From Candidatus Bathyarchaeota archaeon (GTDB lineage: Archaea; Thermoproteota; Bathyarchaeia; Bathyarchaeales; Bathycorpusculaceae): a DNA stretch of 64,000 nt. Position numbers and translations under genes: made by a program. Where the stretch lies: positions 2,048,001 to 2,112,000 of the forward strand of contig OY970280.1 of the NCBI GenBank assembly GCA_963715865.1, written 5' to 3'. A model generated the notes under the pieces. The model ran no database searches, was not told the origin of the DNA, and saw nothing but the letters and a program-made list of their open reading frames with translations. Below are positions 4,598-17,340 of this stretch, one piece after another; the stretch's first letter is position 1; each line of letters opens with the position of its first letter.

Positions 4598-6043
4598 TTA
4601 GCGTTTTGATTCTTGCAGCAGCTCTTGTATGTATTCGTTAACTGTTTTCTGGTGTTTTTTCGCTATCCTTTTTATGGCATTGTTTATGCCTGTAGAGTAC
4701 TGCACCGCTTTCTTAGGTTTATCCACCACCGAGCCAGGCATACCAGCATTCAAAGCAACTTTTCTTAGTACAAGCTTTCTTAGGGTATCCGTTTTCTTTT
4801 CAATTTTGCACTCAATCGGCAAGCTTAAAGCAAATTCAGCAAGCTCAAACGACGCGAAAGGCAAACGCAACTCCACATCATGGTAAGTGCAGATTTTCAG
4901 GTCACGCTCAAGATTGCTCTCATGAATCCCAACCACATCGTTGAACATTGTTTTTCGGACTTTTTCGCTTCCCTCGTTGCAGTATTCGTTGACATAGCGT
5001 TGGTAGCCTCCGAAAAGTTCATCTGCGCCCTGCCCAGCCAACAGCACCTTGAAACCTGCTTCAGCCGCTTTTTCTGCAGTCCAATAAAACGGCAAGCCGA
5101 CGCTGGCTTTAACTGGGTCAGGCTCTTCAATTAGCGCTATCACTTTTGGTAAGGTTTTTTCGACGTCAGAGTCTTTGAATAAATGGACCTGTAGGGGCAG
5201 ATTTAATTCGTCTGCAGCTTTCATAGCCTCTTCCGTTTCAACCTGATTCTCCAGACTCACATGAAACAGATTAACTTTTACTCCACACTTGCTCGCCAAA
5301 TAAGCCACTAAGCTGCTGTCTAATCCTCCTGAAAACGCGACTGCAACCTCCTTTAAGCCGTGCACTCGTCTCTGGATTGATTGCTCAAGAAGAGCTTGAA
5401 GCTTTTTCGCTGCTTCATCCATCGTTATCGGTTTAGGTTCTGTGTAAGTTAGTGTTTTGATTGGTTTGAACTGGAAACCTTCGCGATTGAAAAAAGCTAT
5501 GTTGCCCGGCGGAAAAGACAGCGGATTTTCTATTCCCAGCTTCCACAGGGCTTTTCGGTTTGTGGCAACGGCAGCGACATTTTTGTTTTCTCCGTAATAA
5601 AGCGGTTGAACTCCTACTGGGTCTCTTCCCGCCGCAATCCAACCATCCTTGAGCATTAAAAACGAATAGTCTCCATCCGTTTTCTCAATTAGCGTTTGCA
5701 GGATGGTTTCGCAATGATTCGGTTCCTTGGCAACCTGTTCCATAACAGCAGTTTTTGGCATAGGCGAATAGACTCTGCCTTCAAAGACAAGCGCTGCATC
5801 ATCCAACTTCAAAAACTCATAACCACTCTCCGATTTAGGTTTCGAGGAAAGATAGCCAACCATGGTTGATGAAACTAAGCCTTGTCTACTCATGATGTCA
5901 AGGTTTTTGTCTAAAAGACTCTTCGTTGGGGAAACTAACCCAAAATGTGAAGTCCGCACATCACCGAGTACTTTAAGTAATTCAAGAACCCGCTCAACTA
6001 CGTTATTGCGCTGCTTATCTAATACTGCAACAGTTACCTTCAT
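4598..6043 (-). CDS. Asparagine synthetase B-like protein (no N-terminal catalytic Cys)
   Basis: GRDPVGVQPLYY, PP-loop AFSGGLDSS, GQGADELFGGY; start taken at ATG 6043 (GAGGG SD). Confidence 0.85.
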   Translation of the reverse strand: MKVTVAVLDKQRNNVVERVLELLKVLGDVRTSHFGLVSPTKSLLDKNLDIMSRQGLVSSTMVGYLSSKPKSESGYEFLKLDDAALVFEGRVYSPMPKTAVMEQVAKEPNHCETILQTLIEKTDGDYSFLMLKDGWIAAGRDPVGVQPLYYGENKNVAAVATNRKALWKLGIENPLSFPPGNIAFFNREGFQFKPIKTLTYTEPKPITMDEAAKKLQALLEQSIQRRVHGLKEVAVAFSGGLDSSLVAYLASKCGVKVNLFHVSLENQVETEEAMKAADELNLPLQVHLFKDSDVEKTLPKVIALIEEPDPVKASVGLPFYWTAEKAAEAGFKVLLAGQGADELFGGYQRYVNEYCNEGSEKVRKTMFNDVVGIHESNLERDLKICTYHDVELRLPFASFELAEFALSLPIECKIEKKTDTLRKLVLRKVALNAGMPGSVVDKPKKAVQYSTGINNAIKRIAKKHQKTVNEYIQELLQESKR

Positions 6044-6088
6044 ACCCTCACACACCAACCACAACGTACAATCTGAAATATCATTGGT

Positions 6089-6105
6089 AAAACATTAATC
6101 TTTAA
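6089..6105. repeat. 17-bp direct repeat, left copy (AAAACATTAATCTTTAA)
   Basis: Exact match to 8013-8029. Confidence 0.9.
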
Positions 6106-6329
6106 CGATTTTCACGTATTTTTAATCAAGACTTTAAATGAGAAACGATTGGAAACTTAGGTGACCCCTCAATGATGGCATGTTGTTCTATGGCTGCCCA
6201 GCGGAAAGATAGTTGTTTCAAACGATTAAGCGGACAAAAAAATGGGTCAAAAAGCGTTTAGTGGAAGGAAAAAAGTTCGCATATTTTATTAACTAATCAA
6301 ATAGATAGAGAATAAAAGAGTGAAACGTC

Positions 6330-6926
6330 ATGGGTTCCTATCTTTTAATAATGCGTGAAATAGACGAGTTAGCGAGGGATGTATTGTCGCATTCAGAGTT
6401 CAGAGAAGCAGATGACATTTCTCGTTCACTCGCTATTGGCAACAAAAGTATGAGAAGAGAAGCAAGGTACCGCCTTATTGAAATCGTAAAGCCACCTCCG
6501 AAAAGACCACTTTCTTACGCTCAACAAGAAATCACGCATCTTCCTCAGGCGACAAGAAACAGCATTCGGTATCTCGGCGATTATATAGACCTTTTAGTAA
6601 AAGGCATGGCGTTCGAGCTTACAAAAGACCCTCGTTGCAAAAAGAGCTCTTTAGGCGCGAACGTTCGAAAACTAAATCCTGAGAGACATGCAGTTTCCTT
6701 AGAATTGATAAATAATCTGCGAAGATATGACTCTTTGTTCTATAATCCAGGCAAGCATGATTTTAGCATGCCGCCTCCTGGTCGAGAGCATCATTTCACT
6801 TCTATGGAAACAGTATTTGATGTTTTTGTCACTTTCAAACTTGCAGATGAAATTAAGAAAGCCTCTCAATTTGCCAACCTGATTAGCCTTGACAAAGAAA
6901 CCATTGAGGATTTTGAGGATTATTAA
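6330..6926 (+). CDS. Hypothetical all-helical protein, possibly HEPN-like
   Basis: ORF track; LRRYDSLFYNPGKHD resembles a HEPN N-x-x-x-H end motif. Confidence 0.6.
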   Translation: MGSYLLIMREIDELARDVLSHSEFREADDISRSLAIGNKSMRREARYRLIEIVKPPPKRPLSYAQQEITHLPQATRNSIRYLGDYIDLLVKGMAFELTKDPRCKKSSLGANVRKLNPERHAVSLELINNLRRYDSLFYNPGKHDFSMPPPGREHHFTSMETVFDVFVTFKLADEIKKASQFANLISLDKETIEDFEDY

Positions 6927-6930
6927 GAGG

Positions 6931-7090
6931 CATTTCAAGGTTGTAACCGAACAGGAACTTAGAAACTTTGCTAACGCAAGGATGGCATGGAGTTACTTGT
7001 CTACCTAGAGGAAAGATTGTAGTCAGCAAGAATAAGAGAAGAGTAAAACAATTATTGCCAACCAATTATAACAAACTTTATAATCAATAG
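6931..7090 (+). pseudogene. Frameshifted remnant resembling the C-terminal tail of archaeal tyrosine integrases
   Basis: FKVVTEQEL(+1 shift)ETLLTQGWHGVTCLPRGKIVVSK; family assignment is from recollection only. Confidence 0.35.
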
Positions 7091-7103
7091 AAAGGAATTA
7101 AGG

Positions 7104-7226
7104 GATAGACGTTTCCTATCGATAGCTCGTGAATAATAATTCGACTACTTGCACGGCGAACTGTTCCAAGTAATCCAATGTAACAGTTCCCGTGAGGTTT
7201 TTGGATTATTACTCACGTAACCTATC
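7104..7226. other. Nested inverted-repeat (hairpin/cruciform) element
   Basis: Arms 7128-7140/7205-7217, 7152-7165/7182-7194 and 7121-7125/7222-7226; small hairpin 7104-7120. Confidence 0.55.
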
Positions 7227-7254
7227 AGTTTTAGTCGCCTATTCGCCTTTCCAC

Positions 7255-7542
7255 TTATTTTTTCTTGTCGCTTGGATTCAGTACATACAGCTTCTTAACA
7301 CCGTTTGGCTCTACTGCTGTCCTTAAAACAATGTGTTTGAATTCTCCTCTTCTTTGCAATCGTCTTATTCCACCTCTGGCGGAGTCCAAATTGACATCTT
7401 CAGATGAGAAAACTACGGCAGTGCCCTTTTTTATGCTATTTAGAATGTCTCTATAAGGCGTATGTCTTGTTATTGCTTCTGGGACAACCTCCTCTGATAC
7501 TACAGTTAGGTTGGTTATGTCAAGTGCTGATTTCTTTGTCAT
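7255..7542 (-). CDS. Small basic protein, putative DNA-binding
   Basis: ORF track; own TATA (TATAAATA) and SD-like upstream; RGGIRRLQRRG basic helix. Confidence 0.65.
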   Translation of the reverse strand: MTKKSALDITNLTVVSEEVVPEAITRHTPYRDILNSIKKGTAVVFSSEDVNLDSARGGIRRLQRRGEFKHIVLRTAVEPNGVKKLYVLNPSDKKK

Positions 7543-7654
7543 TTATAATCGCCTTCGTATATGGTCTGCACTGTTATTTATAGTTAGTGCCTGTTGTGGT
7601 GTCTGGTTAGCAAATGCATTACTGCATTATTACAGTACAATTACCGCAATTTTA

Positions 7655-7921
7655 ACGCATTTTTAACGCAAAAGTGACGCAAAATTACGTTAACGCACAA
7701 CAACGCACGGATACGCATGTTATACGTATAATATACGCATAATATACGTACGAATTACGCATGGATTACTAAATGCACACATGCACGCGCGCACACACAG
7801 ACAACGCACAGATAATACACAACGCACGCTTAAACGCACGCTACAACGCACGGTCAAACGCACGTTACAGCATAACGGTCAAGCATAATGGTTGACCGAA
7901 CGCCAAAACTCACAAAACGCA
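7655..7921 (+). repeat. Phased ACGCA motif array
   Basis: 14 exact ACGCA copies on one strand, mostly 10-12 bp apart. Confidence 0.9.
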
Positions 7922-8012
7922 ACTAACGCGTCTTCAACGCTTCCAAAAGGCGAGTTCAATCGGCAAGACAGGAAAATTAAAACAAAATATCGAATCGCAA
8001 ATTTTTATCGAC

Positions 8013-8029
8013 AAAACATTAATCTTTAA
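8013..8029. repeat. 17-bp direct repeat, right copy; overlaps probable purB promoter
   Basis: Exact match to 6089-6105; ATTAAT lies about 25 nt upstream of the purB TTG. Confidence 0.9.
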
Positions 8030-9398: not shown

Positions 9399-11663
9399 CT
9401 AAAAATCTGAAAGCGCCTTTTGGCTAAATTCTTGCTCTCTATCAAGTTTTTCCCAAGTGTCCTTTTTAACGAAACCGCCGACTTGCTCCTTAATTTTCTT
9501 AGCCAACCGTGGCCCCACAAGCGGCAAATTCGTTAAATCCTCAACCGCCGCATGCTTTATGTCCTCAATTGTCTTGTATCCTGCATTGTACATTATGCGT
9601 CCGCGGACTCTGCCTACGCCTTCCAGCTTAACAATAGGCAATAGCTCCTTCTTTATGCCTTTAGAAACCCTCTCCACCAACTCGTTAGTTAGCGGTAAAA
9701 CTTCTTTTTCTCCGAAAAGTGCAGCTAACTCGTCGGTAGCGTGAAGCAGCCACTTCGCATTCTCAATGGTTCTGTATAAGTCGCCAGGTTGCACTCCGAA
9801 CTGTTCAATCAGTTTTTCTTCGCTGATTTCCTCAATCCAATTCTTCATTACCACAGCAGTTTTGATTTCACCAAGGAACTCTTCATACGAGAAATGGTCA
9901 GCCCACTCGTTTGGAACATCAGTGAACAATTCATCTTTGTGCTCTTCAAGTTGAACCGCCAGAGCATCAAACTCTCTTGCGTACGGCCTCATTACTGGAC
10001 CCATGTCAGGCGTGTGAGAAATCAAATGAAGCAAACCAAAATCTGTTAGGTAAGCGGGCTTGTTTCTTAAGGCGTCGCGGATTACAACTGCTGAGAGCGG
10101 GTCAATGTAGAGTTCACTTACACGCTTCCCAAACCGAGTGGCGAAAATATTTTCTCCGCTTAAATCAATCATTTGCTCTTCATAGAGGTACTTTAGGATT
10201 TTAGCGATAATGCCCTTTATCGCTTTCACATCGTATTGGTAAGCGTAGAAGGTTTTGCCGAAGAACTCGTAAATCCCATTTTCCGTGTGAGCGAAATCTG
10301 AGGCAACTGTTGCCAAAACGTGGCCTCGAATTATTTTTTCAACCGCCAGCCTAGACCAAATCCGTTCAGGTTTAGATAGAACGTAGCTTTCCATTAAGTA
10401 ATCTGCTTCATCCGAGGTCTTAGCAATAAGGATTGATTCGCCTACCTTGTCATATTTCGGTCTGCCAGCCCTGCCCGCCATCTGCTTATACTCTAACACG
10501 CTGATTGGATAGTTTCCGTAGCCTGGCTCAAAACGCCTGTAATCCTGAATGATAACCGTTCGCGCTGGAAGGTTAACGCCGAACGCTAACGTGGGCGTGG
10601 CGGTTAACACTTTGATTTTTCCCTCCTTAAACGAATCCTCAATCAGCTTACGATGCGCGCCAGCTAATCCTGCATGGTGAAAAGCGGTGCCGCACCGCAC
10701 AAGCCCGGCAAGGATTTCGCTAATTTGGGTTCGTTCGCCCGCTGACAGGATTTTTTCGGCTTCATGCTCCAGCGTTCGCTTCATAGGCTTAGATAAAACT
10801 TCGCCTGTGTGTTGGGCAATGGTTTTTGCGGCTGAAACCGAGTTTTTTCTTGTTGAAGCGAAAACTAAAGCTTGACCGCCATTCTTCAGCGTGTTCAAGA
10901 CAAGGTTTATGGTTGGGTACCGTGTTTTCTTTTCAATTTTTCTTGCGTCTCCATCCTTGTACTGGATTTCCTCGTTTAAAATCACGCCTTCTTTAAGCGG
11001 GACTGGGCGCCACTCAGTAACAATGTAGCTTGCTTTTAGCCATGAGGCGATTTCGTCAACGTTGCTTATGGTGGCGCTTAACGCTAAAACTTGAATGTCA
11101 GGATTAACCTGCAGAAGCCTAGCCAAAACCACTTCGAGTGTTGGTCCGCGTTCCGCCTCGTTTAAAAGATGAATCTCATCCGCCACAACAAGCGAGATAT
11201 CGTCCATCCATTTGGCTCTGTGCCGCAGAAGCGAATCTGCCTTCTCATTCGTGGTAACTATAATGTCATAGCGTTCAAGCCAAGTGTCAGCAGTGTCAAA
11301 ATCGCCAGTGCTAATGCCAACACTGACTTTTCTGCCGTCAGGCTTCCTGATGGACGAGTATTTTCTGAATTCTTCAAACTTTTCGCTTGCCAACGCTCGA
11401 AGCGGTGAGAGGTAAATTACTTTGCCATTCTTCTCCAGCACATGCTTGAGACCGCAGAGTTCAGCAATCAACGTTTTCCCTGACGCCGTGGGGCTGGCTA
11501 GAACGATGTTTTTGCCTTCAAGCACTCCTGCCCGTATGGCTTCTTCTTGAGGCGGAAACAACTCCGTCATCCCCAAGTTAAGCAGTATCTCCTTGACTTG
11601 TTCTGGAACGGGCAACTCTGCAATTTTCAACTTAAACTCGCCATCAACTGTTATTTTTATCAC
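9399..11663 (-). CDS. hel308: Ski2-like ATP-dependent DNA helicase Hel308/Hjm
   Basis: PTASGKT, DEIH, QMAGRAGRP, C-terminal HhH. Confidence 0.95.
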   Translation of the reverse strand: MIKITVDGEFKLKIAELPVPEQVKEILLNLGMTELFPPQEEAIRAGVLEGKNIVLASPTASGKTLIAELCGLKHVLEKNGKVIYLSPLRALASEKFEEFRKYSSIRKPDGRKVSVGISTGDFDTADTWLERYDIIVTTNEKADSLLRHRAKWMDDISLVVADEIHLLNEAERGPTLEVVLARLLQVNPDIQVLALSATISNVDEIASWLKASYIVTEWRPVPLKEGVILNEEIQYKDGDARKIEKKTRYPTINLVLNTLKNGGQALVFASTRKNSVSAAKTIAQHTGEVLSKPMKRTLEHEAEKILSAGERTQISEILAGLVRCGTAFHHAGLAGAHRKLIEDSFKEGKIKVLTATPTLAFGVNLPARTVIIQDYRRFEPGYGNYPISVLEYKQMAGRAGRPKYDKVGESILIAKTSDEADYLMESYVLSKPERIWSRLAVEKIIRGHVLATVASDFAHTENGIYEFFGKTFYAYQYDVKAIKGIIAKILKYLYEEQMIDLSGENIFATRFGKRVSELYIDPLSAVVIRDALRNKPAYLTDFGLLHLISHTPDMGPVMRPYAREFDALAVQLEEHKDELFTDVPNEWADHFSYEEFLGEIKTAVVMKNWIEEISEEKLIEQFGVQPGDLYRTIENAKWLLHATDELAALFGEKEVLPLTNELVERVSKGIKKELLPIVKLEGVGRVRGRIMYNAGYKTIEDIKHAAVEDLTNLPLVGPRLAKKIKEQVGGFVKKDTWEKLDREQEFSQKALSDF

Positions 11664-16564: not shown

Positions 16565-17037
16565 TTAAGTTGAATCTCCAGTTCAGTTACATTAGCACCA
16601 TTCAAACGTTTTTTGCAATGATTTAATCTTTACTTACTTCTTTTATGAAAATTTATCTATTCCCCTTTAAGCCACCTTTTTTCTATGCATCTGCTTCTGG
16701 AAACGGTTAACAACTTTCTGGAAGTCATACTCTTTAGCAGTAAGCGACTGTTTCAAACCAGCCGATAATGAAGTCTATCATCAGTAATTAACTTATGATT
16801 TTAATATACCAGCCTCTTGGCAAGTTCAAAGATGAAGCGTGCGCCACCGGCTAAACCTAAACTTAAACTGTTAAAGTTTATATGCATATCTTTTCCCGAT
16901 TCTGTTAACTCTTAGGGGCTTGCGAGTTTTACTGAGAGGTTGTTAACCGGCGGGGCTTCTCATGCTTTTATAGACTGAATTTTGTCTATGAAAGGATTTT
17001 TATTTAAACGTATTACCTATTCGTTAGCAGAACTATC

Positions 17038-17340
17038 ATGAGCAAAGAGTTGCGGGCGCGTTCTGCACGTTACATGCAGTTTTCAATCTACTTAGTTACA
17101 TCTCGTAGTCCTATCCCGTTGTGGAATAACTTCCAGCCTAAAATACGCCAAATACTCAATCCAAGAGAGAAAAGAAAAATGAGCCAACTTCTGATGCCCT
17201 ACTTTAAGAACAAAACAGGAATTTGCATTGGCGGTGCAATATTTTGGGAATTTAATGAATACTTAAAACATGCCAAACAAGTTATAAACGTAGATATAAC
17301 GCCAATCCCCGCTGGACCGCCCGTCACTCCAGAGCTATGA
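17038..17340 (+). pseudogene. Possible truncated SAM-methyltransferase N-terminal fragment
   Basis: GICIGG...VINVDITP then premature stop. Confidence 0.3.

Follow-up and report, generated by a model that had tools for sequence, protein, structure and literature searches.

What does a helically phased array of ACGCA motifs do next to a gene for a small basic protein in an archaeal chromosome? We encountered this arrangement in a window of 64,000 nucleotides (contig OY970280.1, positions 2,048,001 to 2,112,000, assembly GCA_963715865.1) from a Candidatus Bathyarchaeota archaeon. There, a gene for a 95-amino-acid (aa) protein is transcribed away from the array. The original prediction, made from the letters alone, took the array for a plasmid parC-like centromere or a set of replication iterons with the 95-aa protein as the candidate binder. 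Bathyarchaeia are abundant, uncultured archaea whose mobile elements are almost unknown. Bacterial mobile elements use small proteins, polymerising on phased direct repeats, to control excision, partition and lysis-lysogeny switches, and we know of no such module described for Bathyarchaeia. Following the locus and its homologues computationally, we find that the gene-array pair most likely belongs to a mobile element as its protein-coated control region, and that a plasmid centromere or a replication origin is the poorer reading.

We analyzed the array within the genome that holds the window (G000; a single contig of 2.35 Mb, 42.8% G+C). It contains 14 exact copies of ACGCA, all on the + strand (7655, 7666, 7677, 7693, 7703, 7713, 7735, 7757, 7804, 7822, 7834, 7846, 7858 and 7917). 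ACGTA variants at 7724 and 7746 complete the register, giving 16 ACGYA cores with successive spacings of 11, 11, 16, 10, 10, 11, 11, 11, 11, 47, 18, 12, 12, 12 and 59 bp. Core spacing is thus mostly 10-12 bp, with 10-11 bp in the left half and 12 bp in the right half. Both arms of a hairpin, GGTCAA (7877-7882) and TTGACC (7892-7897), are present. The copy positions, the variants, the general spacing pattern and the hairpin had been listed in the original prediction, and our checks verified them. The array had also been said not to be a simple tandem repeat, and we agree: the positions flanking the core hold 0.05-0.8 bits of information, that is, almost none, so the units are not plain tandem copies. 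One core is common to three distinct repeat units (TTTTTAACGCA, ATATACGYATA and AACGCACGnnnn). The ACGCA core stays exact in these different units while the spacers vary, which argues for selection on the core rather than recent slippage. The array has a G+C content of 44% (our own count from base tallies) and units of 10-12 bp with a conserved core of 5 bp, and it shows no distinct unwinding element.

Across the whole window, ACGCA is not over-represented (110 observed vs 109 expected), and its density over the genome is about 0.8 per kb per strand. More than five copies within 300 bp occur at this locus only in the whole 2.35-Mb genome. The lag-11 self-similarity of the array likewise exceeded that of all 275 intergenic controls from the same genome.

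The protein encoded beside the array is basic, as had been noted (18 K+R vs 11 D+E, our own count from the translation). Performing an exhaustive profile search, we obtained a family of 41 representative clusters with members of 85-130 aa. In the family alignment, an Arg-rich helix (…RRLQ-K/R-K/R-GEF…) and a beta hairpin belong to a conserved core. AlphaFold (AF2, 44 sequences) gave a model with a pLDDT of 84.6 and a helix-strand-helix-hairpin topology, in which there is no ribbon-helix-helix. Searching with Foldseek against PDB and BFVD, and with VIA-align wide, we found only weak matches: winged helices (Z 4.2-5.4; the Pi initiator among them), R3H and Alba, these all with Z ≤ 5.4, and from Foldseek also uL23. 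These matches, all weak, included no ribbon-helix-helix proteins. The protein has no family in Pfam, PHROGs or PADLOC and no PDB match by sequence profile, and the ESM Atlas returned unnamed viral clusters below 0.9 and nothing more. Judged from the model, the fold resembles a small alpha/beta nucleic-acid-binding domain, with a helix rich in Arg and a wing formed by a beta hairpin. The structure prediction that had been proposed as a check thus yields a model resembling a nucleic-acid binder, but the fold matches behind it are weak and mixed. Searching the genome in six frames with a hidden Markov model, we found no second paralogue of the small gene.

Does the array accompany the gene elsewhere? 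Homologue loci were drawn from congeners, metagenomes and one IMG/VR contig; 17 loci entered the Tandem Repeats Finder (TRF) analysis and the clustering of open reading frames (ORFs), and 12 the periodicity analysis. At 60-450 bp upstream of the gene start, the homologues carry a patchwork of short tandem arrays, with sequences unrelated between loci (AACTAGnn about 15 times, GTAACCGTTACC-type, CTATAGTAAC-type, and TTAACRAMA six times). Homologues down to 43% identity carry periodic arrays at this same position. TRF repeats cover 17% of the upstream 500 bp in the 17 loci vs 1.3% of the remaining 92 kb. In 9 of the 12 loci, periodic self-similarity exceeded that of at least 98% of the 275 intergenic controls (best periods 11, 11, 11, 9, 10, 12, 22, 8 and 8). 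Some homologue loci, such as L054 and L058, lack arrays. The proposal of a linked module of array and small gene therefore stands: its refutation had been tied in part to a lack of co-occurrence in other places, and the two do co-occur. Archaeal viruses or plasmids had been named as places to look, but the complete elements proved to be chromosomal IS6-like transposons. One-turn phasing, as originally described, fits the 10-12-bp spacing in G000; periods in the family span 8-12 bp, so that helical phasing is frequent but not universal.

The gene and the array are kept together in three inserts that lost the transposase or never had one (G000, G046 and G112, the last at a different chromosomal site). 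Between these three, the array segment cannot be aligned, while the gene, 80 bp of its promoter and the element ends can; the promoter region, given as the sole non-coding part that aligns across the three, has 72-77% identity. We rejected the idea that the arrays evolve faster than neutral, since the synonymous divergence (dS) of the hosts G000 and G046, 0.6-0.7, already accounts for the lack of alignment. Counting same-strand YGCAY, a core that we chose post hoc after viewing the data, we found 16, 7 and 12 copies in the three closest homologues; 550 controls averaged 1.0 copies and never exceeded 5. The G000 array has 16 YGCAY on the top strand and 3 on the opposite strand. The spacing in the three closest homologues follows multiples of 10-11 bp (11, 11, 21, 22, 22, 33 and 44 in G112). 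Most of the distant homologues have 0-2 copies of YGCAY and use RTAAC or GTAC instead. Two candidates for a common denominator were dropped. TAAC and GTAC are enriched in many loci, but ACGCA dominates the G000 array and AACTAG that of L062, which rules out a single universal motif. Z-DNA or alternating purine-pyrimidine tracts fail for L052 and L062.

The surroundings of the pair in G000 point to an insertion. The array and the 95-aa ORF sit between an asparagine-synthase-like gene (4598-6064, - strand) and purB (~8047/8061-9396, + strand), and our repeat search found 1,907 bp of this junction flanked by two exact copies of a 17-bp direct repeat, AAAACATTAATCTTTAA. Whereas the two genes are separated by 60-90 bp in most of 30 congeners, the gap in G000 measures 1,982 bp. 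Most congeners (for instance L006 and L008) have an empty site with a single copy of the 17-mer, and so does G041, the closest relative by purB (dS 0.31). Of the 30 purB loci, 20 (G000 counted) have the exact 17-mer, and most others a near-identical one. G046 (locus L007) has a homologous insert of 1.1 kb at the same point with the same termini, and the third close copy, in G112, lies at another site, within a 2-kb insert flanked by housekeeping genes. Bearing on the assembly artefact that the original prediction had named as a concern, the homologous element of one congener was identical in three independent assemblies (L036, L049 and L053). Comparing the three gene copies, we obtained ratios of nonsynonymous to synonymous divergence (dN/dS) of 0.08-0.11 at dS ≥ 1, which means that the small gene is maintained by selection even in inserts that lack a transposase. 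The G000 insert is not itself an IS6 member: its ORFs include no DDE or recombinase gene, a decayed IS6-like inverted repeat was not detected (score below the shuffle mean), and its duplication is 17 bp rather than 8 bp.

The complete relatives of the module are transposons. In five loci, a gene for a SWIM-zinc-finger protein with an IS240/rve-type DDE domain lies about 550 bp downstream of the small gene (PF13610 matches, E = 6e-19 to 1e-15), and this transposase was the sole recurrent neighbour in the ORF clustering over the 17 loci. Two elements, L054 (3,584 bp) and L048 (3,957 bp), are complete. Each carries a conserved element of about 65 nt, inverted, at both ends, perfect 8-bp target duplications (GCGTAATC and CTTTTTTC) and the termini GGTTCTGTTAAC...GTTAACAGAACC. 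Arrays lie just inside the left inverted repeat, on the small-gene side only and not at the right transposon end, and 4 of 7 loci have TATA-like boxes at a distance of 9-26 bp outside this end. Besides the transposase gene, L054 and L048 each hold five genes, one of them a tRNA gene. They share a two-gene cargo on the - strand (213-230 aa and 95-97 aa; L054 6033-7021, L048 4195-5307). The larger cargo protein has a weak Panacea/SocA antitoxin-domain match, and the two genes may be a toxin-antitoxin pair.

The hallmarks of the IS6 family are 8-bp target duplications and inverted ends beginning with GG, and a review of the family lists one member only with a passenger gene (PMC7986276). L054 and L048 match IS6/IS26 in their IS240-type DDE domain, their 8-bp target-site duplications and their termini beginning with GG. 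Unlike IS6/IS26 elements, which have a single ORF in about 0.8 kb, they are 3.6-4.0 kb and thus four to five times longer, their inverted ends measure about 50-65 bp, and they encode a SWIM zinc finger along with several passenger genes. The IMG/VR contig had suggested a viral lysis-lysogeny switch, which we rejected. On this contig, which ends within the DDE gene, the virus genes (with a terminase) and the array lie on opposite sides of the left inverted repeat; the module there is therefore the transposon's, not the virus's.

How would such a pair work? Our leading answer, which we hold as a real possibility short of probable, is by analogy a Cox/Apl-like cooperative binding platform, on which the small protein would control its own promoter and the element end. 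The array would be the cis half of a two-part module, a set of short direct repeats directly upstream of the promoter of a small, basic, winged-helix-like protein. This module is native to a lineage of Bathyarchaeia IS6-like cargo transposons, lying just inside the left inverted repeat, and persists in G000 as a 1.9-kb insert without transposase in the asnB-purB promoter. We infer that the protein binds DNA at the same-strand YGCAY/ACGCA cores and polymerises head-to-tail on one face, each helical turn taking up one protomer. Binding would be cooperative with relaxed sequence specificity, and about 300 bp of DNA would be bent or wrapped. The complex would then regulate the protein's own promoter together with the element end that abuts the host promoter.

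P2 Cox and 186 Apl recognise direct repeats, spaced 10-11 bp, at attP and at the promoter switch, and bind them in a weakly specific, cooperative and DNA-bending manner; proteins of the Cox/Apl/Xis type are small and basic (~70-95 aa), have 5-7 repeats per site and are encoded first in their operon (PMC7498355, PMC3936717). The present pair resembles P2 Cox, 186 Apl and lambda Xis in its basic 95-aa protein and its same-strand cores at 10-12 bp. Cox/Apl sites adjoin an att site; here, 75-370 bp separate the array from the direct repeat of 17 bp, and the gene comes first after the control region. Unlike in these systems, there is no sequence similarity and weak fold similarity, and the model lacks the second helix of the canonical winged helix-turn-helix. 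The array is also much larger, its 16 or more cores extending over 300 bp and several sub-arrays that differ in their units. Where these systems use a tyrosine recombinase, the enzyme linked to the wider family here is a DDE transposase of IS6 type.

The Cox/Apl-like platform draws on the genome-unique array with its exact core in three units, the enrichment of repeats upstream of the homologues, the retention of gene and array in transposase-less inserts, the purifying selection on the gene, the YGCAY core of the three closest homologues, the predicted fold and the layout in common with recombination directionality factors. Several observations weigh against it. The weak fold matches (Z ≤ 5.4) equally fit the RNA-binding folds R3H, Alba and uL23. 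At least 16 sites over 300 bp far exceed the known sites of recombination directionality factors, and the 8-9-bp periods at some loci misfit binding on one face. The complete transposons L054 and L048 have weak or no arrays. The YGCAY counts carry the post hoc choice of their core, and protein similarity is weakly linked to array composition (Mantel r = 0.27, p = 0.03, 12 loci). Moreover, the Arg-rich helix, the putative DNA-reading element, is nearly invariant across groups with unrelated array units, an argument against strict recognition of ACGCA as such. Relaxed binding that depends on spacing, or specificity borne by the wing, fits better than strict recognition of each unit.

The same invariance raises the question of whether something other than the small protein binds the arrays. 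Host chromatin proteins (histones or Alba, with positioning at ~10-11 bp) or the transposase could do so, making the array a chromatin buffer or a subterminal end element. The location just inside the left inverted repeat of complete transposons is in keeping with such a binder, as are the periodicity kept between loci whose units are unrelated and the enrichment of GTAC and other alternating purine-pyrimidine tetramers. We nevertheless consider it unlikely, because the array stays with the small gene in three inserts without transposase or inverted repeat, occurs on the small-gene side of the transposon only, and has a core motif common to the closest protein subclade. A functionless, slippage-prone satellite, tolerated in the spacer between the element end and the first promoter, would explain why the arrays of G000, G046 and G112 cannot be aligned, why every locus mixes several short arrays of differing units and periods, and why L054 and L058 have none. 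With host dS at 0.6-0.7 and that of the gene at 1 or more, however, old neutral arrays would be expected to have lost their internal regularity, but 9 of 12 loci carry arrays. The 14 exact G000 cores persist despite differing spacers, with one core in three units, and the strand polarity is 16 vs 3. No comparable ACGCA cluster exists elsewhere in the 2.35 Mb, and none of the 275 intergenic controls matches the periodic self-similarity. A satellite is, on this account, quite unlikely.

The two functions named in the original prediction fared worse. For an origin, with the array as iterons of a small replicon or the chromosome and the small protein as the origin-binding factor, one can cite a genome-unique locus, direct repeats adjoining AT-rich DNA, and the Pi initiator among the weak winged-helix matches. 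We regard it as very improbable: the closest relative, G041, has an empty site, so that an origin essential to the chromosome cannot lie here. The distance to the Orc1/Cdc6 genes is about 110 kb and 570 kb, the locus has no skew turning point, and units of 10-12 bp with a 5-bp core differ from 17-22-bp iterons. Pfam searches found no Rep, primase or helicase in the ORFs of L054, L048 or the G000 insert, and no Rep protein, primase or helicase recurs across the 17 loci. Moreover, the complete relatives are transposons with target duplications, for which an origin is not needed. A partition centromere coated by the small protein for segregation is likewise very improbable, despite the likeness to R1 parC, in which two sets of five ~11-bp iterons are bound by ParR (PMC2241845). 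As in this type II system, clusters of ~11-bp direct repeats precede the promoter of a small candidate binder, here 100-400 bp upstream of the gene start; omega/ParG-type repeat arrays can be likened as well. Unlike ParR/parC, the present elements are chromosomally integrated inserts or transposons rather than low-copy plasmids and have no predicted ribbon-helix-helix. Pfam detected no cytomotive NTPase of the ParM, ParA or TubZ type in L054, L048 or the G000 insert, nor does any recur in the 17 loci. Transcription of the array into a repeat-rich non-coding RNA (A/C-rich from the + strand, UGCGU-rich from the - strand), coated by the small protein or sponging a factor, has little likelihood. 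The RNA-binding folds R3H, Alba and uL23 among the matches would suit it, as would a conserved T5-6 run 3′ of the array at the element end (G000 and G046), T runs 3′ of the arrays in L052 and L062, and a - strand whose folding is slightly more stable than that of shuffled sequences (z = -2.43). Against it, the + strand shows no structure (z = -0.69), the array sequence lacks conservation, and no separate promoter was identified. Rfam gave no match in the whole window, nor in the 1.9-kb insert even at E ≤ 1.

There is a further reading, which we hold improbable. The gene-array pair might be a portable "promoter adaptor" of promoter-seeking archaeal IS6-like transposons, domesticated in G000 as a purB regulator. 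The protein would coat the array at the transposon end near the host TATA box, and the resulting nucleoprotein buffer would insulate or tune both the element's promoter and the displaced host promoter. G000, G046 and G112 would keep the pair without a transposase, under purifying selection, as a regulator of the adjoining housekeeping gene.

Small accessory DNA-binding proteins encoded near one transposon end and acting on repeats or ends have precedents in TnpA of En/Spm (CACTA), with its subterminal repeats, and in InsA of IS1. Unlike these eukaryotic and bacterial systems, whose proteins are unrelated, the arrays here lie at one end only and are kept without a transposase. A small protein acting on phased repeats is a known principle, and the novelty lies in the unnamed protein family and the unusual archaeal transposon context. 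What links this family to a rapidly changing yet persistent array is a position conserved between diverged loci. Outsized IS6-like cargo transposons carry the pair, which also survives alone in housekeeping promoters under strong purifying selection and may show how transposons sited at host promoters are tolerated. One 95-aa protein and one 300-bp fragment make it a testable pair for protein-DNA work. The coordinates of all features are collected in Table 1.

Table 1 Features of the array locus and of related elements (window positions unless a locus is named).
Feature	Position	Strand	Remarks
Insert and its borders
17-bp direct repeat, left copy (AAAACATTAATCTTTAA)	6089..6105	.	insert border; asnB-side promoter copy
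Transposase-less insert body	6106..8012	.	between asnB-like and purB genes
17-bp direct repeat, right copy	8013..8029	.	TATA-containing promoter element of purB
Conserved right terminus of element	7973..8012	+	T5 run (8002-8006), ends CGAC; 82% identity to G046 element end
Secondary insertion with ORF198 (6330-6926)	6170..7023	+	imperfect 47-nt direct repeat, 6170-6216 and 6977-7023
Small gene
Stable hairpin	7095..7254	-	directly 3′ of small gene stop; -50.2 kcal/mol, z = -5.15, 0/200 shuffles as stable
95-aa basic protein gene	7255..7542	-	candidate array binder; transcribed away from array
Conserved putative promoter region of small gene	7543..7622	-	TATA-like TTATTTATAG at 7584-7593
Array
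Array	7644..7941	+	16 ACGYA cores at 7655-7921
Sub-array 1	7644-7697	+	11-bp units
Sub-array 2	7700-7763	+	10-11-bp units
GCAC-rich alternating purine-pyrimidine tract	7766-7803		within array
Sub-array 3	7801-7866	+	12-bp units
GGTCAA/TTGACC hairpin	7877-7897		within array
AACGC variants	7899-7941		right end of array
Elsewhere
Solo IS6-like terminal inverted repeat	16899-16950	-	alignment score 48 vs shuffle maximum 24
tRNA genes	L054 4411-4485; L048 2567-2644; L061 1318-1397; L046 8678-8753		between small gene and transposase gene

Within the G000 insert, the block with ORF198 accounts for 760 bp that are absent from the G046 copy, and both copies of its 47-nt repeat match a single segment of L007. 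ORF198 belongs to a widespread family of hypothetical proteins of about 200 aa (95 clusters at E ≤ 1e-3) and has no match in Pfam, PHROG or PADLOC. The asnB-purB junction also holds unrelated cargo in other congeners (L010/L065, L067, L019, L029 and L031-L033), and this site is therefore an insertion hotspot. G003 carries a CAP12/Pycsar-type TIR-domain defence-like protein there, and the cargo of G042 and others consists of secreted or membrane proteins; every cargo-bearing junction retains the 17-mer on the purB side.

Searching for tRNA genes 3′ of the small gene, we found them in three loci with ARAGORN and Rfam and in a fourth, L046, with ARAGORN alone. In L054 and L048, the tRNA lies within the element bounded by the target duplications. 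The copies differ in anticodon, and for two of them the ARAGORN reading has odd anticodon loops. The imperfect hairpin 3′ of the G000 small gene takes the position of this tRNA gene; ARAGORN detected no tRNA in it and Rfam gave no match, and we rejected a tRNA relic there. A GC-rich segment directly 3′ of the small gene in L043 (~9590-9625; G112:C11) resembles the 3′ half of a tRNA by eye and hints at a tRNA-derived junction; ARAGORN detects no tRNA in L043.

Elsewhere in the window, a TATA-like box lies directly outside the solo IS6-like inverted repeat. A 100-aa ORF (17038-17340) 90 bp inside this repeat proved unrelated to the small-protein family. Further copies of the repeat are found at position 601769 of the G000 genome and near a DDE gene at 623.5 kb. 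The genome encodes two SWIM-DDE homologues (1430186-1431136 and 623571-624323; L063 and L064) with 41-43% identity to the L054 enzyme, and these could act in trans on related ends.

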